Source: Chrysochromulina tobinii (taxonomy: Eukaryota). From it: DNA of 37,764 bases. The position numbers and the translations under genes were made by a program. The notes under the pieces are model-generated. The model was not told where the DNA came from. It did not search any database and worked only from the letters and a program-made list of their open reading frames with translations. Position 1 is the stretch's first letter. Each line of letters opens with the position of its first letter. Location: assembly GCA_001275005.1 (NCBI GenBank), contig JWZX01003411.1, positions 1 through 37,764 of the forward strand. The letters run 5' to 3'. Positions 1 to 24,687 of the stretch are shown in pieces.

Positions 1-3000
1 GGGGTCGGCTGCGGCGGTAGCGACGGAGGAAGCTGGGGCGGCAGCAGCTTGGGCGGTTTCGGCGCTGGGCGGCCAGCCCTCCGGCCAGCCCTCCGGTGGG
101 GTCTCTGGCTCGGGTGCCATCCCGGGAGGCCAGCCAGTGGGCGGAGGTGCCGCCGGAGGCAAGCTGGGAGCAGGCCGATGGGGTCGCTCCACGCTCAGTA
201 GCAGAGCAGCCATCGGCGTCGACTCGGCGGCCACGGCTTTGGCCGGGAGGCCGCCCTCGATGGAGCCATGGTCTGGTCCTGATTTCGATATGGGCGCGAT
301 CTTCAACGAGGTCGGCTGTAGCCCAAGCCGTCGGGAGGGGGGCGGGTTGATCCCAGTGACCGCTTTCTTGAGCGGCACGTCCACACTGCGCGCAACGGGC
401 GGCAGGGGCTTGGCGGGTGCCAGTGCCTGCTTAGCTGGCGCCGAGATGGACGAGAGCGACGGCGGCGCCACCATCTCGATGGCCGGCCTGGACGACTTCG
501 AGCTCGGAGGCAGAGTGTGCTGGTTGATTCTGGAGGTGAGGTTCGCGAGCATCGAGACCACCGTCACAAGCTGCTCGTCGTTCGCGCTCAACGAATTCGT
601 GAGATCCGTACGCAGGTTGGAGATCTGAGCCTCGAGCTTCGCATGCTTCGCCTCGGCCAGACTCGCCATGTACTTGGCACACAGCATGGCCTGATACCTC
701 TTGTGGTGCGCGTAGCCACGCACCCGCTGATCTTCGAGGATCTGCTCGCTCGAATGGCGACTGCAGTCCGCACCGTCCCAGCTGAAGCCCTTGGTTTCGT
801 GAGGCGGTGGCTTGCACATGAGCTTGAACAGGATCCATTTGAGAAACCGAAAGATGTTTAACGGCGCGGGTAGCTTGCGGTAGTCCTTGTACTCGCGGAC
901 CGTGTCCGAGAGGAACTCAAACGCCCAGAACTCGCGCGCCTTCTCCTTCACCTCACCGTACACGTCGCCCATCTGCGCGATGAGAAGGTTGATGAGCACG
1001 ATGGTGGCGACGAAGATGTAGACATACATGGCGACGGGTACGAGAGTCGAATTCGGGTCCGCGCCTCCTGTGGGGACGTACGTCGAGATCGCCTCGAGAT
1101 CGAACTCTCCGAGCAGCCCCCAAAACGGCTGGTAGCCGGGCAGCGTGATCAAGTCGCCGTAGATCACGTACCCCGGCATGACGATCGCGAAGAAGGCGCT
1201 GAAGCCGAGCGTCCAGCACATCATCAAGCCGATCCAGGAGATGATCGAGGGCACCATCTGCCCCACGATGATGATGAGGCAGCCCACGCTACGGTCCATC
1301 TTCATCGCGTTGATAAAGCGCACCGTGAGCAGCAGCACGGCGAGCGCATAGAGAAGCTGGATGCAGTTGACGAGAAAGGCAGTCCAGTAGACGAGGTCGC
1401 CAGCAGGGGGGTCGCCACTCACAAGAAGTCTCCACGAGGCAAAGGTGGTGGCGGCCATGTAGTAAGGCAGTGAGTATTTCAGCGCCAACTTGATGGCAAT
1501 CACGAACATGATCGATGAGTACGTGAGGACGTCGATCCAGTTGTACACATTGCTGAAGTAGTCTTCGAGCCCGCCAGGCACTGCGAGGAGCTGCTCGAGC
1601 TCCTCGGCGATCTTGAAGCCCGTCCATACCCAATTGACAATCTCCCAGACCTGGATCTCGTCGGCGCCCATCGAGCCCGCGCGGAACATCCAGCTGGCCG
1701 CCTGCCACGGCCAGCCGCACAGGTTGAGGGCAAGCCAGAAGGTGTACACGAGCGCGATCGTGTTGTGCATGATGAACTTGACATACGGGATCGTGAGGAA
1801 GTTCGCGACGGCACTGATCGGCTTCCCGATCCTGGGCTTCGCCTCGCTGGCAATGCTCATGCACTCATCGTCATCTTCGCCTCCATCCTCGTTCCGGCGA
1901 TCACTCTTGAACAGGTCCCGCTGAATCTGGCTCTGGTTGCGCTGCAGGGAGCGCACGTGGCACCAGGGCAGCTGCCCGAGGAACAGCATATGCAGCAGCG
2001 TGCGCCACCAGCACGGGTCGATGATGCACATCTGGCTTCCGGGAAAGTCGCCGTAAAAGTACCGTTGCGCGAGCGTCTCGCAAAAGGGGTGGCTCACGAA
2101 GAGGCGGCACCTATGCGACTCATCGTCCACTTCGGTAGCATGATCGAGTACCGATTGGTGGCCGTGCCGCGCGGTGGCAAAGATGAGCTGGCGCATCGCG
2201 AGATTGCCGTCATCACACTGGTCGAGCACGCCATACGCCCAACGTTCAAATATGAAGGCTGATTCCCTCCATTCGTCTCTCTTCGAAGGATTCAGGTCCT
2301 TGTCGAGCGATTGCGAGTGCGCCAGGTGCGCCGCCCAAATGGCGATACGCAGGGGCTCCTGCGGTTGGGTGAAGGGGGTTGGGGGTGGGGGTGAGGGTTG
2401 GGGGTGAGGGGTGGTGGTGAGGGTGGCGCTCAGGCTCACCTCAGTCTTTGCCCACGCGCACTGGGCGAGCTCGATGTACTCAGCGCCAGAGAGCACGGCC
2501 CATAACGTAATGTCAGCCCACGTGGTCTTGACTGCGTTCGGTCTGGGCAGCTGCTCCTGTATCTTCAGCTTGCACTCGCGAGATTCCTTCTCGAGCTTAT
2601 TTCTCAGAGGCCCGTTCTTCTCCTGGATCTCAGCGAACGAATCCGAAGCCTCGGCCTTCCACCCCTCCTTCGGGTACTTCTCCGCACGCTTATGCACCCA
2701 ATGCACCATCTCGCGATTGACCGAGTTCTCCTCCTGTATCTTCAGCTCGCCCTCGCTCCATCGCTTGCGCGCCTTGTTCCAGATCTTGTAATAGTCCTGC
2801 AGGAACCCGGGCAGCTTCTCTGTAAACATCAACATGCCCTCGCCCTCTCCGCCGTCCTCTCCCTCGGTGGCACGGGCTTTGGCCGCCGCCTTCGCGTTGC
2901 GATCCTTGCGAAGCAGGGGCATCATCGACTTCGGCGCCATCAATTGGCCTAATCGGCGGTAGAAGGAGCCTCGACCGAACTGGGCAGACAGGTCGTCGTA

Positions 3001-5079
3001 AGATTTGGGAGTCCATTCATAGAGCTCCCCCCACGCGTGCTCGAGCGACGCGGACTGCACGCCCTTGCCATGCCTCATGAGAGTGCGGAGCAGCACGTGC
3101 TGCGGCGTCACATTGTACTGAATGAGCGCGCGCACCACCTCGGGCTCGTTGCCCAGCAGGGCGTTCGTGAGCGCGCGCGCGAGGCCGCGTGGGTCGACGG
3201 CATCGCTCTCCTCGAGCTGCGTGCGAAGGATGACGGGATCCTTCCAGCGCACCGCCAGGTTGATCGCATCGGTCGTCGTCTCGCAATCCGAGAGGATCGC
3301 TTGCAGCACCTGATGAGGGAGGCAATCATGAGGTCATCACAGGCAATCATGAGGTCATCACAGGCAATCATGAGAGGATCGCTTGCAGCACCTGATGAGG
3401 GAGGCAATCATGAGGTCATCACAGGCAATCATGAGGTCATCACAGGCAATCATGAGAGGATCGCTTGCAGCACCAGATTGCCAAAGTCGTTATGGACCGG
3501 CACGATTCCATTCTCGTCCATGGGTTCGGTCACGAAGAATGTGAGCTGCTTCTCCATGTTGGCACCTGCATGCAATCTCATCGGGGACCTTGTAAGTGGC
3601 ACTCAGGTGGCACTCAGGTGGCACTCTCGGACAGGTGAGATGCTTCTCCTCGTTCACACCGTGCTTTTCGAGGCCGAGCTTGCGGATGCCCTCCAGATAG
3701 GTGCGCGCTGCGTCGCAAAAGGCGGTGTTGCCGACGGGCAGCTCGACGAATTGCATGCGCTGCTCGAGCGACAGCCCTTCCTCGGCGCCCGCCTTGAAGA
3801 CATACTCATACACCGCCTTGGACGCCCCGCCGTTCTCATCACCCACGAAGCACATGACCGGCCGGCGTGCTGCCAGCGTCCTGTGGATGACCTCGAAGGT
3901 GCCCGGGCCGCCGCCGAGGGCAATGAGCACGAGCGCTGGCCGGGGCAGTTTGTCGCCGTCCTTGTCGCTCCCGTAGACCGTGTCACACGTTTGTCTCTCG
4001 AATTGAACGCGGAACTGTCGCTCCGTTCCGAAGGCGCGCTTGCCAGTGAGCGTCTCGCCCGTTTGCGGATCACGCGAGTCGACGAGCAGGAAGTGCGTAT
4101 GCCCCCAGTCGAGGAGGACTTCCCCGTCCGGCAGCTTCTTGGCCGGCGCCTCGTACACATACCGAGGGCCTTTACGCTGCTGCTCGTCGATGGACGAGCT
4201 CGAGCCCTTGCTGATGCTGCCTTTGCGCAGGTGAGGAAGAGTCGATGGGGCAGCTGCGGCGGCACTGTCGCGGAATTGGCGGCCCATGAACTCATCGCGC
4301 TGATTGATGATCCCGTACGGCGCGATGCCGATGCACGGGATCGGCAGGGACGCCAGCTCGTCCTGGCTCATCACCATTCCGATCAGCTCCATCACACCGG
4401 CGCGGGTGCCACCCGTGATGATCCATGGCACCGCGCCGTCGTCGTCCTCGTCGGCCTCGTCGCAGAGGCACGCGCGCGTGACGGCCTCGGTGAGCCCGCG
4501 CTTGAAGAGCACCTTCTGCTTTTCCGTCAGCCCGGCACCGGGGTTAGTGCCGCCCGTGACCGAGATGATGACCGACGGTTGCCGGAGCCGCCAGTGCTGC
4601 ATGCAGAAATTGATGAGATTCTTGAGTTCGTCCTCATCGTCCACGCTGACGTCGGGCACCCTGGCCCACTTGGCCGGCACACGCTTGCTGCCAGGGAACT
4701 CGATCCGGCCCCACTCGACCGCAACATCGCCCGGCCACTCGAGCTCCTTGGTCACCCACCAGTCGGCGAGGTCCTCGGCACTGTCGCGCGGAGTATTGAC
4801 GCGCGAATCGGCTGCTTCGTTGAAACACAATGGCTGGGGCGCGACCTGGACGACCGTGGCTGTCTCTCTCGAAGCCATGGCTGATCCCATGGCGCGGACA
4901 CTCTCGTTGCGGAGAGCCTGCCGTGGCAGGCTGGCGGGGGTGGGAAAGTCTGCCGGCCGTTCCCACTGCACCTCCTGACTGTACTGCTTGTAATAGTATG
5001 TGTCGCCGGTGGCCTCATCTTTGGCGGTGAGCCATGGATCAGCCACGGCCGGCCATGGCGGTGGAGGGGGCGGAGGCAT
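1..5079 (-). CDS. TRPM-like cation channel with N-terminal WW and SLOG/LSDAT domains; exons 5079-3660, 3565-3474, 3309-2440, 2358-<1 (3' end outside the window)
   Basis: WW motif WLTAKDEATGDTYYYKQYSQEVQWERP. TRPM SLOG motifs IISVTGG, WIITGGTRAGVM, HTHFLLVD, GGGPGT. The last exon, translated by hand, gives S4-S5 (VRFINAMKMDRSVGCLIIIVGQM), pore (PFWGLLGEFD), S6 (VLINLLIAQMGDVY) and a TRP-box-like WAFE...LPAPLN. Three GT-AG introns keep the frame. Confidence 0.9.
2359..2439 (-). other. Spliceosomal intron (81 nt) filled with C-rich CCCTCACC-like repeats
   Basis: GAG|GTGAGC...CCGCAG|GAG; splicing gives WAKTE-EPLRIAIWAA in frame. Confidence 0.85.
3310..3473 (-). other. Intron (164 nt) made of two identical 82-nt units, each starting with a 20-nt copy of the next exon
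   Basis: Unit = GTGCTGCAAGCGATCCTCTC + (ATGATTGCCTGTGATGACCTC)x2 + ATGATTGCCTCCCTCATCAG. The downstream exon begins GTGCTGCAAGCGATCCTCTC. Confidence 0.9.
3566..3659 (-). other. Intron (94 nt) starting with a diverged copy of the next exon
   Basis: CACG|GTGTGAACGAGGAGAAGCATCTCAC...GATTGCATGCAG|GTGCCAACATGGAGAAGCAGCTCAC; splicing restores the frame KHG-ANMEKQLTFF. Confidence 0.8.
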
Positions 5080-5154
5080 ATGAACGGGTGCCGAGTCGTC
5101 ACCGAGTTGATTGCGGAATTGTGATGACCTTGTTTCTGTTTCACGTTCACGACT

Positions 5155-5230
5155 CGTTCACGTAAAATTGCCATCTCGGCAAGACGCACACCCACAGGTC
5201 CCGTGGAGACACATCGTGGGGGGCGCAGAC
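5155..5230. repeat. Dispersed ~75-nt intergenic element A, copy 1 (copy 2 at 36488-36568)
   Basis: Shared blocks CGTTCACG, CATCTCGGCAAGACGCACAC, GGTCCCGTGGAGACACA and GGCGCAGAC in the same order. Confidence 0.85.
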
Positions 5231-5351
5231 CTAAATGTTGCTGGTGAGCTCCCAGCACGGTCAGGGGCAACTTATTGTGTGCGATTGACAAGTTAGACGC
5301 GTTCTTTGTGGCCCGCCCGCTGTCGGCTTCCCCTCGCCACATCGCGCACCG

Positions 5352-7958
5352 ATGCCGCCGACGAAGCCGACAAAGGCCCAGGTGCGCACCGCGCTCGCGC
5401 TCGAGACGGCAAAGAAGGCCGGCATCCCGCTCGAGGCGCTTCCCAGCTTGCTGGCCGAGCTGCCATCCGGCGAGTCGTGGTTCAGCGTGCTCAAGGCTGC
5501 CGGCTTCAACGTGCAATCGCGTGGGCCCTCCATCGCCCACATGAAGGCAGGCGGCGAGCCGATAACCCGCCGCGGGGCGGCGGCGCGTCTGCGCGCCTCA
5601 GGCGCCTTCCGCGAGTCCGAGGTCGGCGACATCGGGCCGTACATAGACGCAGCAACCAACAACACCTTCCTGTATCGCCTCGAAGGCCTGTGTGGCGCGG
5701 GCTACTACAGGGTGGACCTCCCGAAGATGGCGCTGCCAGCGAGGACCACCGGTGATGCACCAGCGGCCGGGCCGTCGTCGACCGTGCCACCGCCAGCCTC
5801 ACCTGCCGTTGCAGCAGCAGCAGTATCAGCAGCAGCGCCACTGCAGCCTCAGCCAGCAGCGGCCGCTGCGCCGACAACCGCCGCCGCCGCCGCTGCGCCG
5901 ACCGCCTCCGCCGCCGCCGCTGCCAAGGCGCCGCCAGCGGCGGCGAAGCGCAAGGAAGCCGCGGACGCGTTGTGTCGAGCATCGGACGCGCCCTCGTCGA
6001 GCGTTGTGTCGAGCGCGGACGCGCCCTCGTCGAGCGTTGTGTCGAGCGCGGACGCGCCCTCGTCGAGCGTTGTGTCGAGCGCGAAGCGAGTGCGCGTTGC
6101 GAGTGCCGGCCCGGGGAAGGCGAGCGATGGGAAGGCGAGCGATCCCGCCGCGCAGCCGCCCGCCGCACCGCCGCCCGCGCGACCCGCCACATGCTCAGGC
6201 AAGGCTGCGAGGGCTTCGGAGAGCTCGGCACCTCTCGCCGGTAACTCGTCAGAAGAGGATGAAATACCTCTCATCTCACCGCGCCGCCACGCCAACCAGA
6301 GTGCCAAGCAGAGTGCCAACCAGACCGACCAGAGTGCCAACCAGACCAACCAGAGTGCCAACCAGACCGACCAGAGTGCCAGCCAGAGCGCCGACCACCG
6401 CTGCGACGACGTCCTCTTCTCGCCCACCGCTGCTACGAACTCCGCGACGGCGGCGCCGGCGCTTGCGGTGGCGGCGCCGCTACCGCTGCCGCTGGCGCTG
6501 GCGCAGCCTTTGACTCAACTTCTCCACCTCTACCCCTTTGGCGCAGCGGGCGTGGGCTCGTCATTGGGAGGTCGGACGGAGATCACGATCCCGGAGGGCG
6601 CCGTCCCGGGCATGCCTCTCGACTTGATCGTGCCCGATGGTCCGGGCACGTGCAGTCGCGTGCGCATCATCGTCCCTGTGGGGATGCGGCCAGGCATGAA
6701 GCTCGCTGTTGCCATGCCGCCGTATGCGCCGCCAGTGGCCGTGCAACCTCTCGTGCCGGAGATGGCAACCTCGGAGATGGCAACCTCGGAGATGGCAACC
6801 TCGGAGATGGCAACCTCGGAGATGGCAACCTCGGAGATGGCAACCTCGGAGATGGCACGAGATCAGCCTCGGCAGAGGTCTCGGCAGCCCGGAGCGGTGA
6901 GCGGCCAAGCACCGCTGGCACGGCGAACGTCATTGGCCAGTTGGAGGACGAAAGCTGCTCCTCAGTCTGGGTTTGCGCTGGCGCCCGCGCTCGCGCCTGC
7001 GCCCGCGCCCGCGCCTGCGCGTGCGCCTGTGGTGGAGCTCGACGACGAGGAGGGGCAGGAGGACGAGGAGGTGGAGGAGGTGGAGGAGGAGATGGAGGGT
7101 TTCGAGAGCTCACGAGCAGCAGCGGCCCTCGAGCACGCCTCGAGTGCCTTCGCCGCCAAACATAGCCCTCGAGACCCTCTCAAGGCCGCCCTCGCACCGC
7201 TCGACACGGCGCTCGCGACCGATCCGCCACCAAGTGCACTCTCGAGCTGTGAAAGTGAGGCGCGAGGCTCCCGGCTTGCAGTGCGCACAGGCCAGCCACC
7301 CGCCGTCGCGCTCGGTGCAGCGCCAGAGCCGTTCTCAGAGGCTGCGGCGCTCGCCTTCGGCGTCTCGGCTCGAGTCGGTGTCGAGGCGGTGGCGGTGGCT
7401 GAGGCGCTTTCGTCGTGTTTCAAGGGCAGCTCTACCGCCCCCGCCGCCCCCGCCGCCCCCACCCCCGCCGCTGCGTCTGTCACCGCTGCCGCTGCTGTCG
7501 CCTCCGCCGCGGCGCCCTCTGCCGCCGCCGCCTCGACCGCCTACAACGACGTCGACGACGACGACGTGGACGATTTTGTAGTGTCCGCGTCTGCCACACC
7601 CACCGCTCCCCCCGCGCCTGCTTCGGCGGCGGGCGGCAGCGCCTTGAGTGCGCTGGCTCGCGCTGAGGCCCAGTCACTCCGCAATGCTGGCTCTGGTCAA
7701 ATGGCGCCCGCCGAGCCCAAAAAGGCGCGTGTGCGTCGACCGTGGACCGTGGCGGAGGTGGAGGCGCTCCGAGTGGGTGTGCTCCGCTATGGAGAGGGGC
7801 GCTGGGAGGCTATCCGGCTCGACACGCGCCTCGGCAGCGACTTGACCTATCGGCTCGGGGTCGACCTGAAGGACAAGTGGCGGAATCTGAAGGACAAGGG
7901 CCAGCGGCTCGCGCCGCACGCCAACAGTGCAGCTGGTAGCGCGCCTAGCCTCGAGTGA
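5352..7958 (+). CDS. Low-complexity protein with a C-terminal telobox-type Myb domain (TRF-like telomere-repeat-binding family)
   Basis: C-terminal RVRRPWTVAEVEALRVGVLRYGEGRWEAI...YRLGVDLKDKWRNL carries the VDLKDKWRN telobox signature; 868-aa open frame. Confidence 0.8.
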   Translation: MPPTKPTKAQVRTALALETAKKAGIPLEALPSLLAELPSGESWFSVLKAAGFNVQSRGPSIAHMKAGGEPITRRGAAARLRASGAFRESEVGDIGPYIDAATNNTFLYRLEGLCGAGYYRVDLPKMALPARTTGDAPAAGPSSTVPPPASPAVAAAAVSAAAPLQPQPAAAAAPTTAAAAAAPTASAAAAAKAPPAAAKRKEAADALCRASDAPSSSVVSSADAPSSSVVSSADAPSSSVVSSAKRVRVASAGPGKASDGKASDPAAQPPAAPPPARPATCSGKAARASESSAPLAGNSSEEDEIPLISPRRHANQSAKQSANQTDQSANQTNQSANQTDQSASQSADHRCDDVLFSPTAATNSATAAPALAVAAPLPLPLALAQPLTQLLHLYPFGAAGVGSSLGGRTEITIPEGAVPGMPLDLIVPDGPGTCSRVRIIVPVGMRPGMKLAVAMPPYAPPVAVQPLVPEMATSEMATSEMATSEMATSEMATSEMATSEMARDQPRQRSRQPGAVSGQAPLARRTSLASWRTKAAPQSGFALAPALAPAPAPAPARAPVVELDDEEGQEDEEVEEVEEEMEGFESSRAAAALEHASSAFAAKHSPRDPLKAALAPLDTALATDPPPSALSSCESEARGSRLAVRTGQPPAVALGAAPEPFSEAAALAFGVSARVGVEAVAVAEALSSCFKGSSTAPAAPAAPTPAAASVTAAAAVASAAAPSAAAASTAYNDVDDDDVDDFVVSASATPTAPPAPASAAGGSALSALARAEAQSLRNAGSGQMAPAEPKKARVRRPWTVAEVEALRVGVLRYGEGRWEAIRLDTRLGSDLTYRLGVDLKDKWRNLKDKGQRLAPHANSAAGSAPSLE
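5961..6082 (+). repeat. 33-nt coding tandem repeat (ADAPSSSVVSS), about 3 copies
   Basis: GCGGACGCGCCCTCGTCGAGCGTTGTGTCGAGC repeated. Confidence 0.9.
6291..6390 (+). repeat. 21-nt coding tandem repeat (ANQTDQS-like)
   Basis: GCCAACCAGACCGACCAGAGT variants in tandem. Confidence 0.85.
6759..6857 (+). repeat. 15-nt perfect tandem repeat (EMATS), 6 full copies plus a partial
   Basis: GAGATGGCAACCTCG repeated. Confidence 0.95.
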
Positions 7959-8241
7959 GCCGGAGCGCTGCTCGAGCTCGGGCGTGAGACAGAGTGTGTA
8001 TAGCGGCACAGAGACAGATGTCGCGGGCTCACTAATCGCCTTCGACCGTCGACCGATAATGGGCACGATCGTCCACGTGTATGTCGTCACGAACCGCCAC
8101 GCCGTCGCCGACATTTTTCTGTTCACATCTAATTTTTCCATAGACTGGTACCCCCCGCTTTATCGGAACCAGTGCGCTCGACTGTGCGTTTACATGTCCC
8201 GTCGTCCCTCTCTCATCTCATCCCCTACCCCGTCTGCCGCC

Positions 8242-11200
8242 TCATTTTTGGCCTGGGCTCTTTATGACCAGCGCTTTGAACTTCGATGCGGCGGCGGCGG
8301 CCTTGAGCCCCTTGGCAACCGCGGGAGCGGTTGGGGTCGCGCCGCCGCCCCCGCCGCCGCCGCCGCCGCTCGGTCGCAGGAGTTTCCTGAGCTCGTCGTA
8401 CGAGATCGAGCCGCCGCCATCGGAGTCCCACTGGTCAAAGAGAGCATCGACGGCCTCCTTGGGTACGTCGAGCCCGAGGGCGGGCATGGCCTTGTGGAAC
8501 TCCTTCCGAGAGACGTCGCCGTCGCCGTCGGTGTCCCACTCGCGAAACAGGTCGAGGACGCGCACCGCATTCGCTTGGAGAGCCTTGCTGATCTGCTCGC
8601 TGACCGGCAGGGCCCCTTGGGATTCATCGAGGTCGAGGTTGCCCAGGACGGACGTCTTCGTCTTCTTCTTGGGCGAAGGAGACCTCGCCGGCGTGGGAGT
8701 GGCAATGGGGGGGGTGCTCGCCTTCGGAAGGCCCATCCGCACCGTCTGCAGCTCGCTCTCGAGATCGAGCGCCTCCTCGAGCGCCCTGTTGAGCTCTTTC
8801 GCGAGCGCGGCTCTGTCCTCGAGCGCCGTACCGAGCTCAGCCTCGGCACGCGCCGCCCTCTCCTTCGCGTGGCCGGCCTCGCGCTTTCCTCGCGCGCCTT
8901 CCTGCGCCGCGACGCTCAACGCCTCCCGCAACCCCCTCGCCTCCTCGCGCGCCTCGGCGAGCTCCGCCTGCCGCGCTTCCTCATGGGCCCTGGACTGCTC
9001 CGAACCACGCCCGTGCTGCTCGCGCAGCCTGCGGCGCTCCTCCTCAAACGAGGTGCGCTGAGCGGCGAGGAGCTTCTCGAGGAGCTGCTGGTTGGCCTTG
9101 CGCTGCTGCGCGACGTCTTCCTCGGCCTCCTGCCGCAACCTCTCCGCAATCTCCGTCGCGAGATGGGCCGCCTCGAGCGCCGTCCTGAGCTCATCGACCA
9201 CCTTCCCGGCCGACTGGCTCGCCGCGAGCGCTGCCTTCACGTCCTGCACCTCGTCGAGCAACGCGTCGTGACGGGCACGCAGGGCGGCGAGCTCGTCCTC
9301 GTGGGCTAGGCGCACCTGATGAGGGAGGCAATCAGCGGTGCACTCAGCGATGCACTCGAGCTCGTCCTCGTGGGCTAGGCGCACCTGATGAGGGAGGCAA
9401 TCAGCGGTGTCATCAGCGGTGCAATCTCGCACCATCTCGAGCTGCCCTGCCTCGAAGCGCGCTCGGCGCAGCTGCATCTCCATCGATCGACTCTCCTTCT
9501 CCATCCGAGCTAGCTCCTCGGCCCGCCTCGTGTCACTCGCGTCCCGCGCCCAGTAGCTGAAGGCATCCGAGAGTGCGGGCGCACGTAGACGGTTACCCGC
9601 CACGAGCAGCTGCAGAAGGCTCGAGCGCCGCGCCTCCCACAGCGCGACCCATGCCGTCCAACCGTCGACGAGGCCTTGGTTCAGCATGCGCCTCCCAATG
9701 GAACGTGTCAGGGCCGCCACCCTCGCCTCCCTGTCCTTCTGCTGCGCCAGCGCTGCCCTCTCCGCCGCCGTGCCGGTGAGCTCGACGTGCTGACGCTCGA
9801 GGGCGAGGCGCTTCGACTCTTCCGCGGCGGCGAGTTGTCGCTCAAGACTCGACTGGAGCGTCGCCAGCTCCGCACGAAGCGCCCGCTCCGTCGTTTGGTG
9901 CGTCGTCATCGTCGCGAGCCGTTTGGCGATGGCCGCGTCGAGTCGCCAATGCTCGAATGCGCTCGAAAGCTCTGGCGACTGAAGGCGATGGCTCGCCGCA
10001 CGCAACCGGCCGAGGGCGTAGCGGCGCGCCTCGTATGCCTCACACCATGCGCTCCATCCCCAAACGAGACCTCGATGCAACATGCGCCTCGCGCTCTGTC
10101 GACGGAGCAACTCGATGCGCTCCTCTCTCCTGGCCGCCTCCTGCGCCTCCAGCAGGCTCTGCGCCTCTGCGTGCCCGCCCGTAAGCTGCGCGACACGCTC
10201 CAAGAGCGCGAGCCGCTCCGCCTGCATCGCCGCCAACCGTCGGTCCGCTTCCGCCTTGACGAGGCAGAGCTCGCCGACGAGCCGCTGCCTCTCGAGCTCC
10301 AGAGTGGCCTCGCGCGCCTGCTGCGCGGAGAGCGTGAGACGCTGCTTGGCGTCGGCACTGCGCGCGCCCCAATAGCCAAATGCCCTTTCAAGGGCGGGGG
10401 TGCGCAGCCGGTTGCTCACCCGTCGTAGCCTCTCCATCGCAAACACGCGCGCGCGCCACATGTCGTGCCACGCCGCCCAGCCGTTGGCGAGCCCTTGGTG
10501 GAGAATCCGACGGCCCACCTGCCGCCGCAGCAATTCGACGCGCGCCTCCCTCGCCTGCTCCTCCCGCATCGCCATGAGCTCTGCTGCTGAGCCGGTCAGC
10601 TCCGACCGCAGCCGCTCGAGGGCCGTCTCTTTGATCCGCTCCGCCGCCGCGAGCTTCTTCTCGTACCTGGCATGTGCACGATGAGGGGGGCAATCAGCAT
10701 GCAACGAGGATTGGCAATCCGCATGCAACGAGGGAGAGCTGCTGAGATCGTACTCGAGAACGACCTCGCGCAGCTCGGACTGCAGCGAGCTCGCCGCCGA
10801 GTCGATTGACCCTAGACGCTCCTGCTGCGCCTCGATGAGCTTGGCCTGGCGCGCACGGGAGCGTCGCTCGCATAGGGCTGTCCATGAGCTCCAGGCAGCG
10901 CTCACGTCACGGCGCAGCATCCGTCGACCGGCCCGCCGGCACAGCAGCTCCACACGTTCCCTATGCGCCTGCTCCATTGCCAAGGCGGCCTTCTGCTCTG
11001 CACTGCCGCTCAGCTCGGTGGTGACTCGACGGAGTTCGACCTCGTGGAATGCAGCGGCCTCGAGGAGGCGGCGATCGCTTTCGGCCTTGACCTCGTGCAG
11101 CTCCTCCGTGAGCCTCGCGAGCTCCGCGAGAACTCCGCCCCATTTAGAGTCCTCCTCGGACTGCCGGCGTGCCTCGCGCGCCGCCACAGCGTCGGCTACC

Positions 11201-12582
11201 CAGTGATCGAGCGCTGCCGCCAACCGGGGCGTTCGCAGCCGGTTCGCGGTGGTACGCAACCGCTCATGGGCGTACCGTCGCGCGCGCCACATGTCATGCC
11301 ACGCCGCCCAGCCGTTGGCGAGCCCTTGGTGGAGGATCCGACGAGCCACCTGCCGCCGCAGCCAATCGATGCGCGCCTCCCTCGCCTGCTCCTCCCGCAT
11401 CGCCGCCTGCTCCTGTGCGGTGCCGAGAAGCTCGATGCGCTGACGCTCAAGAGCGAGGCGCTTGGCTTCCTCGGCCGCGTGCAGCTGCAGCCGGCACGCC
11501 TGACGCATCTCGGCTAGCTCAGCCTCCATCTGCATCGCCTGCTCGCGCAGCTGCAGCTCTCGACCCTCTAGATCCGCCGCGTGCTTCGCGTCGTGCCGCG
11601 CCTCGGCCACCGCCGCCGCCCACTTCTCAAACGTGTCCACGACAACCCCGCTGCGCAGACGGCGCCCTGCCTGGCGCAGTTTCTCCAGCGCCAACCACTT
11701 GGCCAGCCAGAACGCATGCCACGCCGCCCAGCCGTTGGCGAGCCCTTGGTGGAGGATCCGACGAGCCACCTGTCTCTGGAGCCGCTGGAGACCGTGCTCT
11801 TTAGCCTGCTTCTCTCGCGCCGCCGCTCGCTCCTCCGCCGACCCGCTGAGCTCGAGGAGCTGTCGGTCGAGCGCCAGTCGCACCTCCTCCGCCATCTGCG
11901 AGCTCATCGCCTCGCGCTGCCGCTCGCACTCCGCCTCGGCCTCGAGCCGATGCCTTTCGGCCTCGAGCTCCTTTGCGGCGAGAGCAGCCTCATACCGTGC
12001 GCACAGCTCTTGCTGGGCGCGCTCAGCATCGGCGGTGCCCGCCTGCTCGATCCCTCGCAGTCGCGTGAGCTCCTCGTTCATCCGGCGAAGCGCCCTCTCG
12101 AGCGCGTGGTTGCGCTTGAGCAGCTTGCCCTGCTCCTCCAGATATGGCAGCCCAAGCTTCGATGCGGCAACTGGCGGCCTCACGCTCCGCTCGTGCAGCA
12201 ACGGCAGCCCGGCAACGCCCGGTGGTTGTGGATGCCGCGACGGGAACGATGACACCCGTTTCAGGTGCCCAATGCTCGATGTGTTCGACTCCGTCAACCC
12301 CATCTCGACCCCGTGCTCGAAAATGGGCGACATGGCCTCGACGTTGAGATACGTGAGCGGCGCCGTGTCGGGACGCGATCGGGAGAGCGAGCTGTGCTGG
12401 TCGGGGTAGAAGTCAAACGGCGAGTTCATCGAGGTGAGTAAGCTGCTGCTACTCGTCGGTCGCCTCTGTACGAGGCTGCGCCCGCCGTTGGTCGAGGGAG
12501 TCGAGGCGCGAGAGGAGGGCGTCGGCAGCAGCTCGTGTCGCCCGAGGACCGGTGCATCATCGCTTAGCCACACCGTATTCAT
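8242..12582 (-). CDS. Large coiled-coil protein with six Trp-rich repeats and a C-terminal EF-hand pair; probable in-frame introns at 10667-10753 and 9316-9432
   Basis: EF-hands DTDGDGDVSRKE and DSDGGGSISYDE. Repeats RRILHQGLANGWAAW-type x6 separated by E/A/R/L coiled coil. First ATG at 12582 (the ORF track starts at a TTG at 12636). Confidence 0.85.
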   Translation of the reverse strand: MNTVWLSDDAPVLGRHELLPTPSSRASTPSTNGGRSLVQRRPTSSSSLLTSMNSPFDFYPDQHSSLSRSRPDTAPLTYLNVEAMSPIFEHGVEMGLTESNTSSIGHLKRVSSFPSRHPQPPGVAGLPLLHERSVRPPVAASKLGLPYLEEQGKLLKRNHALERALRRMNEELTRLRGIEQAGTADAERAQQELCARYEAALAAKELEAERHRLEAEAECERQREAMSSQMAEEVRLALDRQLLELSGSAEERAAAREKQAKEHGLQRLQRQVARRILHQGLANGWAAWHAFWLAKWLALEKLRQAGRRLRSGVVVDTFEKWAAAVAEARHDAKHAADLEGRELQLREQAMQMEAELAEMRQACRLQLHAAEEAKRLALERQRIELLGTAQEQAAMREEQAREARIDWLRRQVARRILHQGLANGWAAWHDMWRARRYAHERLRTTANRLRTPRLAAALDHWVADAVAAREARRQSEEDSKWGGVLAELARLTEELHEVKAESDRRLLEAAAFHEVELRRVTTELSGSAEQKAALAMEQAHRERVELLCRRAGRRMLRRDVSAAWSSWTALCERRSRARQAKLIEAQQERLGSIDSAASSLQSELREVVLEYDLSSSPSLHADCQSSLHADCPPHRAHARYEKKLAAAERIKETALERLRSELTGSAAELMAMREEQAREARVELLRRQVGRRILHQGLANGWAAWHDMWRARVFAMERLRRVSNRLRTPALERAFGYWGARSADAKQRLTLSAQQAREATLELERQRLVGELCLVKAEADRRLAAMQAERLALLERVAQLTGGHAEAQSLLEAQEAARREERIELLRRQSARRMLHRGLVWGWSAWCEAYEARRYALGRLRAASHRLQSPELSSAFEHWRLDAAIAKRLATMTTHQTTERALRAELATLQSSLERQLAAAEESKRLALERQHVELTGTAAERAALAQQKDREARVAALTRSIGRRMLNQGLVDGWTAWVALWEARRSSLLQLLVAGNRLRAPALSDAFSYWARDASDTRRAEELARMEKESRSMEMQLRRARFEAGQLEMVRDCTADDTADCLPHQVRLAHEDELECIAECTADCLPHQVRLAHEDELAALRARHDALLDEVQDVKAALAASQSAGKVVDELRTALEAAHLATEIAERLRQEAEEDVAQQRKANQQLLEKLLAAQRTSFEEERRRLREQHGRGSEQSRAHEEARQAELAEAREEARGLREALSVAAQEGARGKREAGHAKERAARAEAELGTALEDRAALAKELNRALEEALDLESELQTVRMGLPKASTPPIATPTPARSPSPKKKTKTSVLGNLDLDESQGALPVSEQISKALQANAVRVLDLFREWDTDGDGDVSRKEFHKAMPALGLDVPKEAVDALFDQWDSDGGGSISYDELRKLLRPSGGGGGGGGGATPTAPAVAKGLKAAAAASKFKALVIKSPGQK
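9316..9432 (-). other. Compound intron (117 nt = 48 + 69) with two acceptor cassettes and a 28-nt copy of the next exon
   Basis: ATG|GTGCGAGATTG...TGATTGCCTCCCTCATCAG-GTGCGCCTAGCCCACGAGGACGAGCTCG...TGATTGCCTCCCTCATCAG|GTGCGCCTAGCCCACGAGGACGAGCTCG. Unspliced, it puts non-coiled-coil DCLPHQ peptides into the ORF. Confidence 0.85.
10667..10753 (-). other. Intron (87 nt) with a 6-nt junction duplication and a variant cassette
   Basis: GA|GTACGATC...CTGATTGCCCCCCTCATCGTGCACATGCCAG|GTACGAGA; removal gives LEYEKKL. Confidence 0.8.
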
Positions 12583-13057
12583 GTCGCAAACGGACGCACT
12601 CGTTCTCGAGCCAGCTGTCCTGCGAACCGCCTCCAACTCTCTCCCAGACTGAATGAGCGCCTGCGACTGAAGAGGACGTCAGCAAAAAAACCGCTTCGCA
12701 TGCATGCAACGTTTCCAATTTTGAGCGACTTTTAGTTCTTCTGCGGTGTTCCGCACCCTGCACATGGCTGCGCAAAGGGCGAGGGTGCCATTGGCCACGT
12801 CGCCCACTCGCAGCCTTGGTGGTTCCGCGCACAGCTTCGAGTCGCAGCTCTCCATAACATCCACGACGTTCGTCGATGAGTGCGCGAGCAGCTACTCGTC
12901 GCAAGGGCGGCGTGGCTCGCCACTTCGGGGCACGGTTGCGGAGCACGTGACGCTCAAAGAACGCAAGAGCGCGCCGCATCATTGGCGGAACAAGGAACTC
13001 CCCGCTCGCCCCGTCAAGACGGACGAGCCTCTGACTCCACCTCTGACTCTCGCGACC

Positions 13058-15115
13058 ATGGCCCAGCCCAAGCAGGTCGTCAGCCTGTACCGATCGCTCC
13101 ACGTGCCCCTCGAGGCGTGGGAGGACCTAGCAGAGGCCTCCTTGCCAAAGTCGCCCGTGTCGGCGATGGCGGATTTCTCGTCGGACGCGGCCGTGGTCGA
13201 CGAGGACGAGACCTCCGACGATCTCGATGGCGATCTCGATGGCCAGAATGTCGAGCCGTCCAACGGGGCGTGGCCCCAGCTGACGCCTTACCGCACCCCT
13301 GGCTTTGGTACCCACTTTGGCCTGGGCGAGGAGACGCCGACGACGCCGTGGGGCTTGTCACCCGAGCAGCCCCGGCGCATCCCGCACAAGATCGCCACGC
13401 GCCTCGGCCTCGGGGGCTTTCGTGACGATAAGGGTCCGAGCCTCAAGTCCGAGCCTCAAGTTCGAGTCGCCGAGCCTCGCGATGGCCTCCACACAGTCCA
13501 CCCCGCGTCCCATTTACTTGGCAAGAGCGTCGACGAGGGCCGCGAGGCGCCCGCCATGGCGCCCGCAGCGTACGTCCGCGCCACGTGGACGCATTGGAGG
13601 GCCGACGTGGACGCCGCCTTTGCACGCACCGACACCAACGGCGACGGACAGATCTCCCGTACTGAGCTTGTCCGAGCGTGCCGCCTCGACGACGGTATGC
13701 GTGCGCTGCTCGGCCTGTCGGAGCAAATCCAGCTCGAGGACGGCACGCGCGATGCCTTCGAGCGTCTCTTCGGACGTATCGAGGAAGATTCCAAGAAAGT
13801 TCGGCGAGATGCCGCCGCCCTCGTCGCCTCCACCATCACCCTCGACAAGTTCCGTGCCATCCTGGCGCCTGAGCTCCTCCGAGCACACCATGCGAGCTCG
13901 GCCCGCGCGCGTGACGCTGTGGAGCAGATGCGCTCGAGCTCGGACAGCCGGCATCAGACCTCAGGGCATCAGACCTCAGGGCATCAGACCCCAGGGCATC
14001 AGACCTCAGGGCATCAGACCTCGACGCATCAGACCTCAGGGCATCAGACCTCAGGGCAGGTCGAGTATCCCGGGGGTTTCGTGCCTCTGCCCGGCAGGCT
14101 CTTGCCCTCCTCACCGCCCACCACGCGGCCGCCGCCGCCCCCGAGCCGCTCTGCCGTCGTCGAGGCGTGCTGCAGTCCCCACGTCACAACTCCCTCCGAC
14201 CTACGCTGCGCCGCGACCCTCGAGGCGGCGCGTCGGCACTGGCGACCGCTCGTGCCATTCGTGCCGCCCGTTACATTTGGGCGCACGCAGCTGCACTATC
14301 TCGACCGAGCTCGCGAGGCGGCGCGCAGCGGCTGCGACCGTGTCGAGGTGGCGATCGAGGCGATCAGTCGCCTCACGCCTGCTCATCTCGGCGCCATCCA
14401 GCACCTCTACATGCTCCTCGTCGAAAGCAGGCATGGAGCCCCCAGCACTACAGGCGCCGCGCTGAGCACGTCGGAATGGCGTCACTTTTGCATGCACTTC
14501 CTGCGCCAGCCCTCGTCGTTTGGGATGCTCCTTCCGATGACGCTCCTCCTCAGCCTCCACGAGCGCTTCGAGCGACGCTGCGCACACGCTGCCGCCCGGG
14601 CCGAGCCAGGCACCCGCTACTGCTCCTCTGACGGATCGAACGCGTCGGCACCATCGGGACCGTCGGCCGTCTCTGCGGGCGTGGCCTCTGCGGGCGTGAT
14701 CTCCTCGGGCGTGGGTGCCTTCATCGGCTTGCTCTGCGAAGTGGCAGATCACTGGGCGCGACGCAATGGCCTCGCTCCTCCTGAGCCGCCCCTCTCGGCG
14801 AGCTACACGAAGGAGATGGCGGTGGCCGTGCCACTCGCGGGCACGGCGACCGTTACGGCGCCCGACCTTGGTCTCTTCGAGGCCATCCGTGTGAGGCTGC
14901 GCCTACCGCCTGGGCTGCCGGCGCTTCATTATCTCCTCGATCGCATCGCCATCGCGTCAGATCCCGAGAGCGAGAACGGTGGCGACGCCGTCAAGAGATC
15001 TCAGCGGCACGCGATCATACACGCGATCCGTCGCCGGGCAGGTCAGCGCTTCGTCAAATGCACGAGCTTGGATCGAGCACTAGAGCCGCTCCGTCTGTGG
15101 CCCGTGCCAGCGTGA
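13058..15115 (+). CDS. EF-hand-containing protein of unknown function, divergent from the coiled-coil gene
   Basis: EF loop DTNGDGQISRTE within a 789-codon open frame (from 12746). ATG 13058 is the preferred start; start and 3' end are uncertain. Confidence 0.65.
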   Translation: MAQPKQVVSLYRSLHVPLEAWEDLAEASLPKSPVSAMADFSSDAAVVDEDETSDDLDGDLDGQNVEPSNGAWPQLTPYRTPGFGTHFGLGEETPTTPWGLSPEQPRRIPHKIATRLGLGGFRDDKGPSLKSEPQVRVAEPRDGLHTVHPASHLLGKSVDEGREAPAMAPAAYVRATWTHWRADVDAAFARTDTNGDGQISRTELVRACRLDDGMRALLGLSEQIQLEDGTRDAFERLFGRIEEDSKKVRRDAAALVASTITLDKFRAILAPELLRAHHASSARARDAVEQMRSSSDSRHQTSGHQTSGHQTPGHQTSGHQTSTHQTSGHQTSGQVEYPGGFVPLPGRLLPSSPPTTRPPPPPSRSAVVEACCSPHVTTPSDLRCAATLEAARRHWRPLVPFVPPVTFGRTQLHYLDRAREAARSGCDRVEVAIEAISRLTPAHLGAIQHLYMLLVESRHGAPSTTGAALSTSEWRHFCMHFLRQPSSFGMLLPMTLLLSLHERFERRCAHAAARAEPGTRYCSSDGSNASAPSGPSAVSAGVASAGVISSGVGAFIGLLCEVADHWARRNGLAPPEPPLSASYTKEMAVAVPLAGTATVTAPDLGLFEAIRVRLRLPPGLPALHYLLDRIAIASDPESENGGDAVKRSQRHAIIHAIRRRAGQRFVKCTSLDRALEPLRLWPVPA
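13951..14055 (+). repeat. 15-nt tandem repeat (HQTSG), 7 copies
   Basis: GCATCAGACCTCAGG with minor variants. Confidence 0.95.
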
Positions 15116-15153
15116 GCCGGTACGCTACTGGTACGCCCTCGCGGGTACTGTGC

Positions 15154-15213
15154 GGGGACGACAGGGGCGCCTCTGATTGCGCCTCTGATTGCCTCCCTCA
15201 TCAGGGGACGACA
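15154..15213 (+). mobile_element. Acceptor-cassette insertion flanked by a 10-nt direct repeat
   Basis: GGGGACGACA (15154-15163) + GGGGCGCCTCTGATTGCGCCTCTGATTGCCTCCCTCATCA + GGGGACGACA (15204-15213). Confidence 0.6.
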
Positions 15214-16437
15214 AGGAGCGCGAGAGTGCAGGGGATCAGCATGCAATGCCGTGGCATCCAGGACGCCTTGCTGCATGCCGTGTGCCCTCGACAGGCAGTG
15301 GCGGCACGGCACGCGGCCACGTGTGGCTATGCGCATGCATGCAATGCCGTGGCATCACGTTTGGCTATGCACATGCAATGTCTTGGCGGCCACGCGTGGC
15401 TATGCGCGGCAGTGGCTGATCGCCGCTGCGCCGCCCGCAATGCCGAGTGAGAGGACTGCTGAGTGGACTGTGTGGTGATGTGTGGAGGGGCGCCGCCTGG
15501 ACAAAGCTGCGCCGGCGGCCGTGGCGTGAAGTACTGAATGCAGCACCGTAGCTGCACCGTTCCAACGCATGCGGACACGTTTGGACATCATGTGGACATG
15601 GACTGCGACGAGTTGCTGGTCGGCGGCGTAAAAGCCGTGACTGCCATGTTGTCGGGAACATGCGTCACGTGGGCACAGTCACGTTCGAATGTGTCGGTGG
15701 CGCTTGTGCGTTGTATGGCGCTGTCCCCGCTGAGTCGTGAGATAAACGTAGATCGTAGTCTGAAGTCTCTAAAACGTGCGCATGTAAAAAATTTAACCGA
15801 ACCGAACGGCACCGCTCCACAGATGGATCCACGCACGCGCACAGTTTTGTTTTCGAGTGTATGCCGGGCGACCGAGTGTATCGCTCTTCCGTTGTAACAC
15901 CATCTCAGCGATCGGCGTCCGGTCCCGGCAGAGCGCGGTCCGGAGTCCGGGAGACGTCCCCCGCCGTGGCTGCCCGCCTTTTGCCCGCCTGCCCCCCAGG
16001 CGTGGGCCACTGTGATCAAGCCGCGATTGGAGTCCCGGAGAGGTGCGCACGACCTCACGAGTGAAAGAGCTAAGAGGTCGACGTGAGAGCGCACAGTGAT
16101 CAGTGTGTGGAACTGGCATCTCTGGCAATCGCGCTGCTCTTACAGCCGTGAAATCGCCCCATGTGAACCGTTATTGAGATCGGGATAACCCTGTGTCCGC
16201 GACCGAGGGACGCTCCCTGGGTCCCGCCCTCCCGCGAAGACCGAAGAGACTTATTGTGCAATTGGGGCCGATGGTAGCTTGAACCCCAGACGACCAAAGA
16301 CCCGAGCGACCGCGCACACTCGTGACAGAGCAAACGCGAGAATCACACACAAGATGCAAATACGGTATACGCGGGCCCGGGCGAAGCGCCGACGGATAGC
16401 TTAACCGATCCACATTACACATCATATTTCATCAGCA

Positions 16438-16995
16438 CGACATCGGCGGGACTGGCGCACGCCGCGCCTTCCCCATGCAGCATCGGTCTTGCCGAGCCTA
16501 TGGATCATGGCATCGGCGGCTCGGCGACATGCGCCTCGTCCTCTGAGTCCGAGTCCGCCACCGACGCCTCCATCGTCTCCTTGGTATGCGTGTGGCGTGC
16601 GTGCGGATGCGAGAGCGTCCAGAAGCCCAGCTTCTTGTTCCGATAGCGAATTCGTATCTCGCCCTCAACGACCACGTACTTGGTGCGCCAGCCTGCCGGC
16701 AGCGGCCGGCGCAGGACTTCAAAACGTAGCACGCCACTCGCCTGCTGGATCTGCGCCGACACGGCGCTGAGCGAGGCTACCGGCACGCAGTTCACGCTCG
16801 TCACAATGTCGCCCGGCAGGAGCTTTTTTCGCCTCGCGCAGCGGCGCGTTCGCGTCGATGTGCGCGATGACTACGCCCGCGACCGTCTCGTCTTCGGGCG
16901 GCTGCAGCGTGAGACCGAGGCGAGTGGTCGGCGTCGCCTTGAAGACGTCCACCTCGAGCGTCTGCGGGCCCTTGGCTCTCCCAAACGAGAGGATC
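16438..16995 (-). pseudogene. Partial, disrupted duplicate of the PDZ gene (source 19876-20435)
   Basis: Near-identical ~560 nt. Extra T in the run at ~16824-16829 (frameshift), CGA>TGA stop at 16505-16507, a 3-nt deletion, and no 5' part of the parent gene. Confidence 0.85.
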
Positions 16996-17309
16996 TTTAT
17001 CTCTCGAGGCATTATATCACAAAAGCGACGAATTTTGCTGAGCGCGATGATTTGAAGCGTCAGTGGCCCGAGGCCGAGGCTGAGCGTCAGCTTAGCATCT
17101 TCAACTGGAAGACTCGGGCTGCGCATAAGGCACGCCGGGATTGCGCAATTGCGGATTCTAAATTTAGAGCGTTTCAAATTTGAGTCTTAATTTAGAGTGT
17201 CGCAAAACCCTTTGAATGCACAAGCAAAACCGCTCATGTGGACAGGATTTTGGCGCTATCGGTACCATTATCACACGCCCGCACTGTGGTGCGTGTACGC
17301 GGGGCAAAG

Positions 17310-19828: not shown

Positions 19829-20743
19829 TCAGATGGATTCGGTACGAAAGGCGACGCCTGCAGCGGCACAGGACGCGACATCGGTGGGACTGGCGCACGC
19901 CGCGCCTTCCCCACCATGCGGCATCGGTCTTGCCGAGCCTATGGATCGTGGCGTCGGTGGCTCGGCGCCATGCGCCTCGTCCTCTGAGTCCGAGTCCGCC
20001 ACCGCCCCCTCCATCGTCTCCTTGGTATGCGTGTGGCGTGCGTGCGGATGCGAGAGCATCCAGAGGCCCAGCTTCTTGTTCCGATAGCGAATTCGTATCT
20101 CGCCCTCAACGACCACGTACTTGGTGCGCCAGCCTGCCGGCAGCGGCCGGCGCAGGACTTCAAAACGTAGCACGCCACTCGCCTGCTGGATCTGCGCCGA
20201 CACGGCGCTGAGCGAGGCTACTGGCACGCAGTTCACGCTCGTCACAATGTCGCCCGGCAGGAGCTTTTTCGCCTCGCGCAGCGGCGCGTTCGCGTCGATG
20301 TGCGCGATGACTACGCCCGCGACCGTCTCGTCTTCGGGCGGCTGCAGCGTGAGACCGAGGCGAGTGGTCGGCGTCGCCTTGAAGACGTCCACCTCGAGCG
20401 TCTGCGGGCCCTTGGCTCTCCCAAACGAGAGGATCCTCATCCCGGGGGTGCAGTCAGTGCTACCTGTATCCCCGTTGACCGCGTTTTCGGATGGAGCAGC
20501 GGCGTTGTCGGAGGATCGACCCTTCTTGCCAAACGAAAGACTACGGGCGAAGAGGGTCACCGGCGATGCAGGCGCAGATGGGGGTGGTACTATATCAGTG
20601 CTGGATGCACCAGACACCGCTCTTGATGGTTTCTTGCTCTCAAAGGAGAAGGCTCGCGTGATGCGCTTAGTAATCTTGGCTTCCTCGGAGGTAGCTTCGC
20701 TGATGTATGAGCCGTTCGCGATGGAGTCTCTGTAAGCGGCCAT
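19829..20743 (-). CDS. PDZ-domain protein with a degenerate WW-like segment
   Basis: PDZ-like RLGLTL...VVIAHIDANAP...LLPGDIVTSVN...VLRFEVLR, followed by PLPAGW...YRN...HP; repeated RxxSFG motifs in the N-terminal part. Confidence 0.75.
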   Translation of the reverse strand: MAAYRDSIANGSYISEATSEEAKITKRITRAFSFESKKPSRAVSGASSTDIVPPPSAPASPVTLFARSLSFGKKGRSSDNAAAPSENAVNGDTGSTDCTPGMRILSFGRAKGPQTLEVDVFKATPTTRLGLTLQPPEDETVAGVVIAHIDANAPLREAKKLLPGDIVTSVNCVPVASLSAVSAQIQQASGVLRFEVLRRPLPAGWRTKYVVVEGEIRIRYRNKKLGLWMLSHPHARHTHTKETMEGAVADSDSEDEAHGAEPPTPRSIGSARPMPHGGEGAACASPTDVASCAAAGVAFRTESI

Positions 20744-22139: not shown

Positions 22140-22350
22140 TGTGCATTAATTTGCTACTTATAGCGCCCGATACGACGCGCCGAAACGACCGAACCCACCG
22201 GCCATGTGCCCGGCACCCACACATGCGAGCGGCAGCGCAGCGCCCCATGGCGGGCGCCCCGCGGCCGCTCCATGGCGTCACGAGACATGCACACACGGGC
22301 AACGCGCGCGCTCGCCACGAAATAAGCTCAACGCTGCAATCACAAGTCGC

Positions 22351-24494: not shown

Positions 24495-24687
24495 CTTCCT
24501 GATGAGACCTGCCGCGTGGGAACGCGGACAATGCAGGGTTCGCGTACCGGTACTGTAAGTTGATTGATTGCGAGCGTAGGCGCGTAGGTTTCGCTTCGCG
24601 CCGTGGTCGGTTGCGCTTCGTGAGACTCTTGCCTGTGTGACCGCTATTTCCGATTTCTTTTTGTGAGACTGTGAACGATTTTTTTCC

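Follow-up and report, generated by a model that had tools for sequence, protein, structure and literature searches.

How can a new spliceosomal intron enter a gene and leave its mRNA unchanged? Where most new introns come from is an open question; gain on a large scale is now mostly credited to transposons. The question is raised by a stretch of 37,764 nucleotides from the haptophyte Chrysochromulina tobinii (contig JWZX01003411.1; hereafter the window), in which one 19-nt sequence, the cassette, recurs at the end of short inserts. A preliminary description proposed that each insert consists of a copy of the sequence that follows it, a short repeat array and the cassette, and that the copy supplies the donor and the cassette the acceptor, so that splicing restores the gene exactly. 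Here this footprint is followed through the window and a metagenome, and the ways in which it could have arisen are weighed.

Anatomy of the inserts in the window

All five exact 19-mers reported for the window were recovered, together with the variant (10678-10696, minus strand, three mismatches), and the 19-mer was absent from all 100 shuffles of the window (Table 1). Exact copies of the following exon start measure 20 nt at locus A, 5 and 28 nt at B, 6 nt at C and 9 nt at D, as the range of 5-28 nt given earlier for the window had it. Each unit of locus A is made of the 20-nt copy, a TGATTGC/TGATGAC array and the 19-mer, and locus B consists of a 48-nt unit (5-nt copy) and a 69-nt unit (28-nt copy). 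At both A and B, the second cassette is part of a tandem repeat, 82 nt long at A and 69 nt at B, which directly adjoins the first unit with no exon between. Thus, the window holds three loci plus a variant, not the five independent inserts counted before. An assembly artefact was ruled out as the source of these tandem units: the ends of DNA contigs in run X4 (3445/3319 at A and 9380/9317 at B) match simulations with at least two units, not with one. Locus B of another assembly (L057) has three cassettes, so the number of units there varies between assemblies.

Table 1. Features of the cassette-bearing loci in the window
Feature	Position	Strand	Remarks
Locus A intron, 164 nt, GT..AG	3310..3473	-	TRPM-like channel gene; two 82-nt units
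Locus A, 20-nt copy of exon start 3290-3309, source of GT donor	3454..3473	-	
Locus A, first-unit 19-mer acceptor cassette	3392..3410	-	
Locus A, second (tandem) unit 19-mer cassette; acceptor in spliced form	3310..3328	-	RNA contig ends and simulation
Further intron of locus A gene, 94 nt, GT..AG	3566..3659	-	left out of one RNA contig
Locus B intron, 117 nt, in frame, stop-free	9316..9432	-	EF-hand/coiled-coil repeat gene; putatively spliced
Locus B, first-unit 19-mer cassette	9385..9403	-	
Locus B, second-unit 19-mer cassette	9316..9334	-	
Locus C, predicted in-frame intron of 87 nt, GT..AG	10667..10753	-	6-nt copy, degenerate cassette 10678-10696
Locus D insert: 9-nt copy, short array and 19-mer (15186-15204)	15155..15204	+	

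In the predicted intron of locus C, the AG sits 11 nt beyond the degenerate cassette. The copy at locus D (15155-15163) begins with GG and lies downstream of the stop that ends the frame 12725-15115. This insert is possibly the 3' part of an intron that starts at a good donor upstream, GTGAG at 15112, or a part of the 3' UTR. The second intron of the locus A gene in Table 1 carries a 25-nt decayed copy of the next exon start (five mismatches) and a TGAGTGC array, without an exact cassette. In relatives, the read-through of this intron (ANEEKQLTF, VNEEKQLTC, VNEEKHLTC) is nearer to the exon.

A short inverted repeat (5-7 bp), a feature said at first to be lacking, is seen. The cassette end TCATCAG and the array unit CTGATGA are reverse complements, and the two pair in the fold of 9385-9432. 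Two of four inserts fold better than their shuffles, and no common fold is claimed. The insert of locus D folds back on itself over 15156-15204 (z -3.25), and its copy is followed by bases close to the reverse complement of the array unit, a trace that snap-back synthesis could produce. Only three module-free introns are found in the window, which is no matched background set, and none of them has an aligned copy of at least 5 nt. The module-free introns 2359-2439 and 23628-23809 (minus) start with GT, and the 5 nt after it are identical to the first 5 nt of the next exon (a repeat with an offset of 2).

For the TRPM-like host of locus A, a homologue search returned distant proteins only; its N-terminal WW domain is a weak Pfam match (3661-5079, minus). 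Loci B and C share one EF-hand coiled-coil repeat gene, and locus D is positioned after an EF-hand gene. Elsewhere in the window, the DapA protein is 76% identical to that of Haptolina ericina and 94-99% to metagenome proteins. Module-free introns of the DapA homologues are partly shared and partly lineage-specific. The DapA gene (22204-24503, minus) has a fused C-terminal PF04455-like domain, as in other haptophytes, and tandem repeats inside several introns; the 5' part of its first intron varies among relatives that are 94-99% identical. Two near-identical ankyrin-repeat genes (25646-26629, minus, and 26588-28216, plus) stand head to head as an inverted duplication with different C-termini, and one coding stretch has a partial second copy (16719-17126 and 19829-20743, minus). 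The depth of DNA contigs in run X4 is about 87-100 at 8378-16500 and about 42-43 at 1000-5195, a step that reflects either a collapsed duplication or hemizygosity of the left part. No Rfam match was found in the window.

Splicing of the inserts

One RNA contig (X16, record 16) skips 3566-3659, and three skip 2359-2439. At locus A, RNA contigs end at 3454 in two of three runs and at 3310 in all three. When assembly was simulated, a mixture of unspliced and fully spliced forms gave ends at 3454/3310, and the genomic form alone at 3445/3319. The assembly graph thus appears to hold both the unspliced and the fully spliced form of locus A; this evidence is indirect and of graph level, with no spliced-junction contig among the RNA contigs listed. 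At B and C, RNA cover is too thin for the suggested check on junctions, and at D it is nil.

Proteins point the same way at cassette loci elsewhere. Full-length NDUFS1 (P0283) and ProRS (P0463, P0472 and P0474) are continuous across the copy start, and so is a gene model of Chrysochromulina parva (P0504). Furthermore, L037, a locus with a cassette, falls at 90% into one cluster with a C. parva gene model; the organism is, with its DapA also of haptophyte type, a haptophyte similar to C. parva. Many spliced copies in unrelated genes thus leave the mRNA unchanged, as is expected of introners. The evidence supports the view that the footprint introns are spliceosomal, with a donor from a target duplication of variable length and an acceptor from a shared piece.

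The footprint in the metagenome

A metagenome scan for the 19-mer gave at least 140 loci, out of about 2700 stretches estimated in all. Of the 233 matches listed, 187 were distinct. The 126 kept as terminal sites had sufficient flank and no other cassette in the 110 nt downstream; the remaining 61 were dropped. At these 126 listed sites, the bases right after the cassette are GT in 85 and GC in 22 cases (107/126), against a background of 8.1% and 7.9% (16% together) after any CAG. An upstream copy of the exon start with an anchored score of at least 10 is present at 58 sites, while the rate among controls is 1.0% for the swapped ones (n = 3690) and 2.4% for the shifted ones (n = 496); the other 68 sites, with no significant copy, make up a short-copy class. 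The preliminary description had named both the excess of copies and the GT/GC fraction as checks, and the excess over controls is large.

A set of 54 sites has zero to three cassette mismatches and a copy without another cassette before it; a few of these are array self-matches. Their aligned copies are 13-55 nt long, so that 5-28 nt was too narrow a range, and their introns 44-204 nt; 49 start with GT or GC. Neither in this set nor in the window is the duplication of a fixed short length. The upstream exon ends show G at 43, A at 30 and C at 27 of the 54 sites. Where frames were called independently on both sides, removal from the copy start to the AG restores the register at 24 of 28 sites (p = 2e-8), and it does so at 37 of all 54; the phases are 14:5:5, a bias to phase 0. 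The claims that the duplication provides the donor and that the gene is restored are supported at most of these sites; at locus D, with its GG, exact restoration is only putative.

The acceptor side consists of array plus cassette, with a match of only about 3 nt to the upstream exon. End-to-end similarity between introns is absent, as the 5' part is a locus-specific exon copy, and at one locus (L006) a bare cassette stands with a copy of 19-23 nt. The poor fit to a DNA transposon with fixed duplications, noted at the outset, is supported. The full-length donor element that had been sought did not appear: in the 600 nt preceding each of 238 listed matches, a sample that is a small part of the genome, the sites have no longer body in common. 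Likewise, no viral donor was seen among the viral contigs scanned, which gave no match to the 19-mer and one, intron-like and at a contig end, to the second module described below. Bacterial genomes gave five matches against 4.3 expected, with no arrays, and thus no donor either. The cassette intron at 1243-1576 (minus) of L062 lies inside what we take, by motif, to be a family-A DNA polymerase gene.

The orientation, first described as always sense, is sense by the codon model in 88 of 95 clear calls among 152 listed sites scored. Four of the seven antisense calls were inspected: only that of L140 held, L037 and L098 read as sense, and L130 was left out. At L140 (282-378), a 59-nt antisense insert of array and cassette is surrounded by 19-nt repeats (four mismatches). 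It adds 78 nt in frame, and 26 codons are kept in a glycine-rich protein at this one locus; its spacer is the same as that of its sense neighbours. A hammerhead or snoRNA origin of the antisense CTGATGAG, a motif of such RNAs, was considered and rejected, with no Rfam match at the gathering score.

A second 3' module

The cassette is not the only piece that leaves this footprint, contrary to the first account of a single fixed one. A second 3' module, GCATGCAAGTGCTCACCAC...CCCACAG, has an upstream copy at 30 of 55 sites compared with 5 of 53 controls, some of the copies being self-matches. Both modules span about the stretch from branch site to AG, and in the last NDUFS1 intron shown in L015 one of each kind is stacked at a single site. 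By eye, the second module has no inverted ends. Since its footprint is the same as that of the 19-mer module, the footprint is not tied to one element.

Gain, turnover and decay

Do these introns occupy new positions, or are they old introns in new dress? For second units, turnover is real: tandem second units occur at 17 of 57 significant sites, with five mismatches in 413 nt, and in two relatives (P0525 and P0526) the exon contains a match to GATTGC by which the second unit of locus A joins the array. For first units, three cases suggest that the positions are new. In ORFs of distant haptophytes, one from an Isochrysis scaffold, the sequence continues unbroken across the NDUFS1 site of L015; these ORFs have unrelated tails and are accordingly read as genomic. 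The intron position is thus absent in distant orthologues, where its conservation would have spoken against recent gain. The 29 residues encoded by the intron of locus C are missing at the matching place in the two sibling protein repeats shown. Finally, a cluster of nine members (P0138) has an extra NDUFS1 intron of about 76 nt, with an exon-start copy and the second module; L015, whose predicted protein agrees with it in 191 of 192 residues, lacks this intron. The last difference, read from predicted proteins, could also be loss by deletion between the repeats. Within NDUFS1 (P0138, P0281, P0286-P0293), the second-module intron is present in some alleles only. One of them, P0281, is without the intron yet has the residue of the intron copy (T), which fits a repeat-to-repeat deletion or an assembly collapse.

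For the 19-mer introns, the suggested search for presence and absence found no intron-less genomic allele among the relatives listed, at most 15 of up to 40 read per cluster, for L006, L015, L037, L041 and L069, which speaks against recent activity of this module. P0137 was rejected as such an allele: P0294 shares its marker residues yet contains the intron, and P0137 is probably partly spliced RNA; the group P0137/P0221/P0295 was ambiguous and also set aside. In an all-against-all comparison of loci, themselves selected for holding a cassette, no presence or absence of a cassette intron was seen, and loci differ only in array length and unit number. The exon-start copies appear to decay with time. 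P0506 has a longer and exact copy where that of L037 has decayed, and copy decay tracks cassette decay weakly (65/1041, 29/291, 7/42 and 1/44).

How the footprint may arise

Two further clues bear on the source of the inserts. Arrays on the same contig resemble each other: the mean likeness among listed sites is 3.8 against 1.7 (0 of 1000 permutations). At 120 sites of culture-type assemblies it is 3.9 against 1.6, and 2.6 against 1.6 without the two strongest clusters. In L120, two introns 200 nt apart have 23 nt of idiosyncratic array in common. Introns of Oikopleura are also said to resemble their neighbours, and haptophyte introns are reportedly rich in tandem repeats of 10-11 bp, according to the genome paper of Emiliania huxleyi. 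The other clue is microhomology of at least 2 nt at the 5' junction, found at 6 of 12 sites against 5%; the sample comes from the 13 of 70 sites with a copy that abuts an array unit, after a 29-nt tandem case was dropped, and includes several tandem units.

New introns may therefore come from microhomology-mediated copying of the 3' end of a nearby intron, with duplication of the target, a reading to which we give a probability of about one half. A DNA strand ending at a (CAG)GT-like exon site would anneal to an existing acceptor junction, AG|GT. Synthesis would then copy the piece from branch site to AG, together with a variable part of the array of that intron, and the strand would return to the target at a distance of 2-55 nt, by way of a microhomology of 1-6 nt, so that the target is duplicated. 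The first exon copy would become the donor and the imported piece the acceptor, the mRNA remaining unchanged. Sense events at GT or GC would survive selection, and each new intron, ending in AG|GT, could be the next template. Later slippage would add tandem units and alter array length, and the copy would decay. What we infer are the double template switch, the polymerase at work and the nature of the template (DNA or RNA); existing models include fork template switching, templated insertion by polymerase theta, and target-primed reverse transcription. On the other hand, gene conversion at a later time could also make neighbours alike, and enrichment of CAG upstream is also expected from selection on donors. 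The preference of the preliminary description for templated synthesis stands as the best fit among the readings.

An RNA template could serve instead: a non-LTR or Penelope-like reverse transcriptase would prime at a nick, start copying at the AG end of an excised intron (or of a SINE-like RNA) and stop early, leaving a variable duplication. A fixed 3' end, a ragged 5' end, variable duplication and microhomology are marks of target-primed reverse transcription, and all are seen here, with a small sample for the 5' microhomology. That both modules cover the same branch-site-to-AG stretch fits as well, and RNA of the same gene could yield local likeness, at the price of an added cis assumption. 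However, a duplication of as much as 55 nt is long by the standards of this route. Neither a poly(A) or other tail nor a longer element body is seen, and the window has no Rfam match; nor did a full-length master element or an RNA head with a 3' tail turn up in the upstream flanks searched. We regard such RNA-templated insertion as rather unlikely.

It is also conceivable that no new positions arise at all, and that slippage in old introns duplicates array, acceptor and exon start, after which the first intron is deleted between AG|GT sites. The common and young tandem units, those of A and B in the window included, the GATTGC junction in relatives and the presence of the 19-mer introns in all listed close relatives agree with this. 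It accounts for second units but not for first ones, and it is at odds with the NDUFS1 position absent in distant haptophytes, the polymorphic second-module intron in mid-exon, the sibling repeats without intron C and the antisense insert; as a general account it is improbable. More improbable still is a tiny non-autonomous DNA transposon with CTGATGA...TCATCAG ends and a short duplication, whose long copies and arrays came by later slippage. Module 1 does have inverted ends of 5-7 bp, CTGAT(GA)/(TC)ATCAG, inserts often start at a CTGAT unit, many sites have short copies only, and a donor from the duplication with an acceptor from the element is a known introner layout (10.1101/2020.10.14.339549, as far as its accessible text goes). 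Yet copies of 13-55 nt without a fixed length, the bare cassette of L006, a second module with the same footprint and no such ends by eye, the lack of end-to-end similarity and the local likeness all stand against it.

Significance

If the acceptor end of a neighbour is copied, new introns have a route that requires no transposon. A broader view may be put forward tentatively, and is more doubtful than the copying itself: gain would feed itself, as introns seed nearby introns when the microhomology of their own AG|GT captures a GT in an exon. The intron would be made precisely in one step, reversibly through deletion between repeats, and such events could account for a considerable part of the introns of this alga, perhaps also of other haptophytes. 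Many footprints can be dated by comparing copy and exon, in an alga that can be cultured and also lives in the wild, which opens the template, the polymerase and the rates at which introns come and go to direct tests. Footprint introns are often in frame or tandem, by which gene models and short-read assemblies are misled. New here are arrays like those of neighbouring introns, junction microhomology, an antisense copy with duplication and a second-module intron that varies between alleles.

Comparison with known systems

In a full-text search that took in few subscription papers and included the accessible parts of PMC4580454, PMC10996645 and PMC11282704, no description of the footprint was found. 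Neither module motif occurs in the available supplement rows of PMC9860276 or PMC12130899; further supplements and introner sets could hold families. As far as its methods are accessible, PMC12130899 demands end-to-end similarity and drops repeat-driven families, and it lists no introner family for C. tobinii; the footprint class is likely missed by such screens.

Several models of intron gain share single features with the footprint. In Daphnia pulex, introns were gained through repair of staggered double-strand breaks, with repeats of 4-12 bp (PMC4202315, accessible part). As there, a direct repeat of the adjacent exon end lies at the far end of the new intron, and events recur at one site. 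However, Daphnia inserts are mostly of no known source, whereas here the acceptor end is common genome-wide, so that inserts are not unrelated between loci, and the repeats are longer. Tandem genomic duplication, in the part of PMC3443670 available, also takes the donor from a duplicated exon, but its AG comes from the duplicated upstream exon, and here from an imported piece; the two splice sites thus do not both stem from the exon. Intron transposition and template switching in reverse transcription likewise reuse intron sequence (PMC3443670, same part). By the same source, reverse splicing moves a whole intron, in sense only and without duplication, a pattern not found here.

The closest systems are the introner-like elements of Symbiodinium and of Polarella glacialis (classes 4/5 and 6/8/10), which, according to the accessible parts of 10.1101/2020.10.14.339549 and PMC9860276, carry the acceptor and take the donor from a duplication. 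As far as described there, they agree with the footprint in having the donor in the first duplicate and the acceptor in the insert, an unchanged mRNA, many unrelated host genes, exon starts biased to GY and a bias to phase 0. Their duplications are of fixed length, 4 or 8 nt, with similarity across the family, whereas those here reach 55 nt, the shared part is the 3' piece alone, there are two modules, and neighbours are alike. The Chrysochromulina introner given in the part of PMC9860276 consulted has the reverse layout, with a 4-nt duplication and the donor carried. The footprint class thus works like introners, with a co-opted donor and a carried acceptor, yet it lacks a fixed duplication length and end-to-end similarity. 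In E. huxleyi, a haptophyte like this alga, family fam24 co-opts the 5' site and carries the 3' site; in the accessible part of PMC12130899 its class is unknown, with "10bp terminal direct repeats", five copies, annotation for two paralogy groups and no mechanism. It is the nearest hint in print, as far as that part goes, and by its description alone, fam24 and the footprint introns may be products of the same process.
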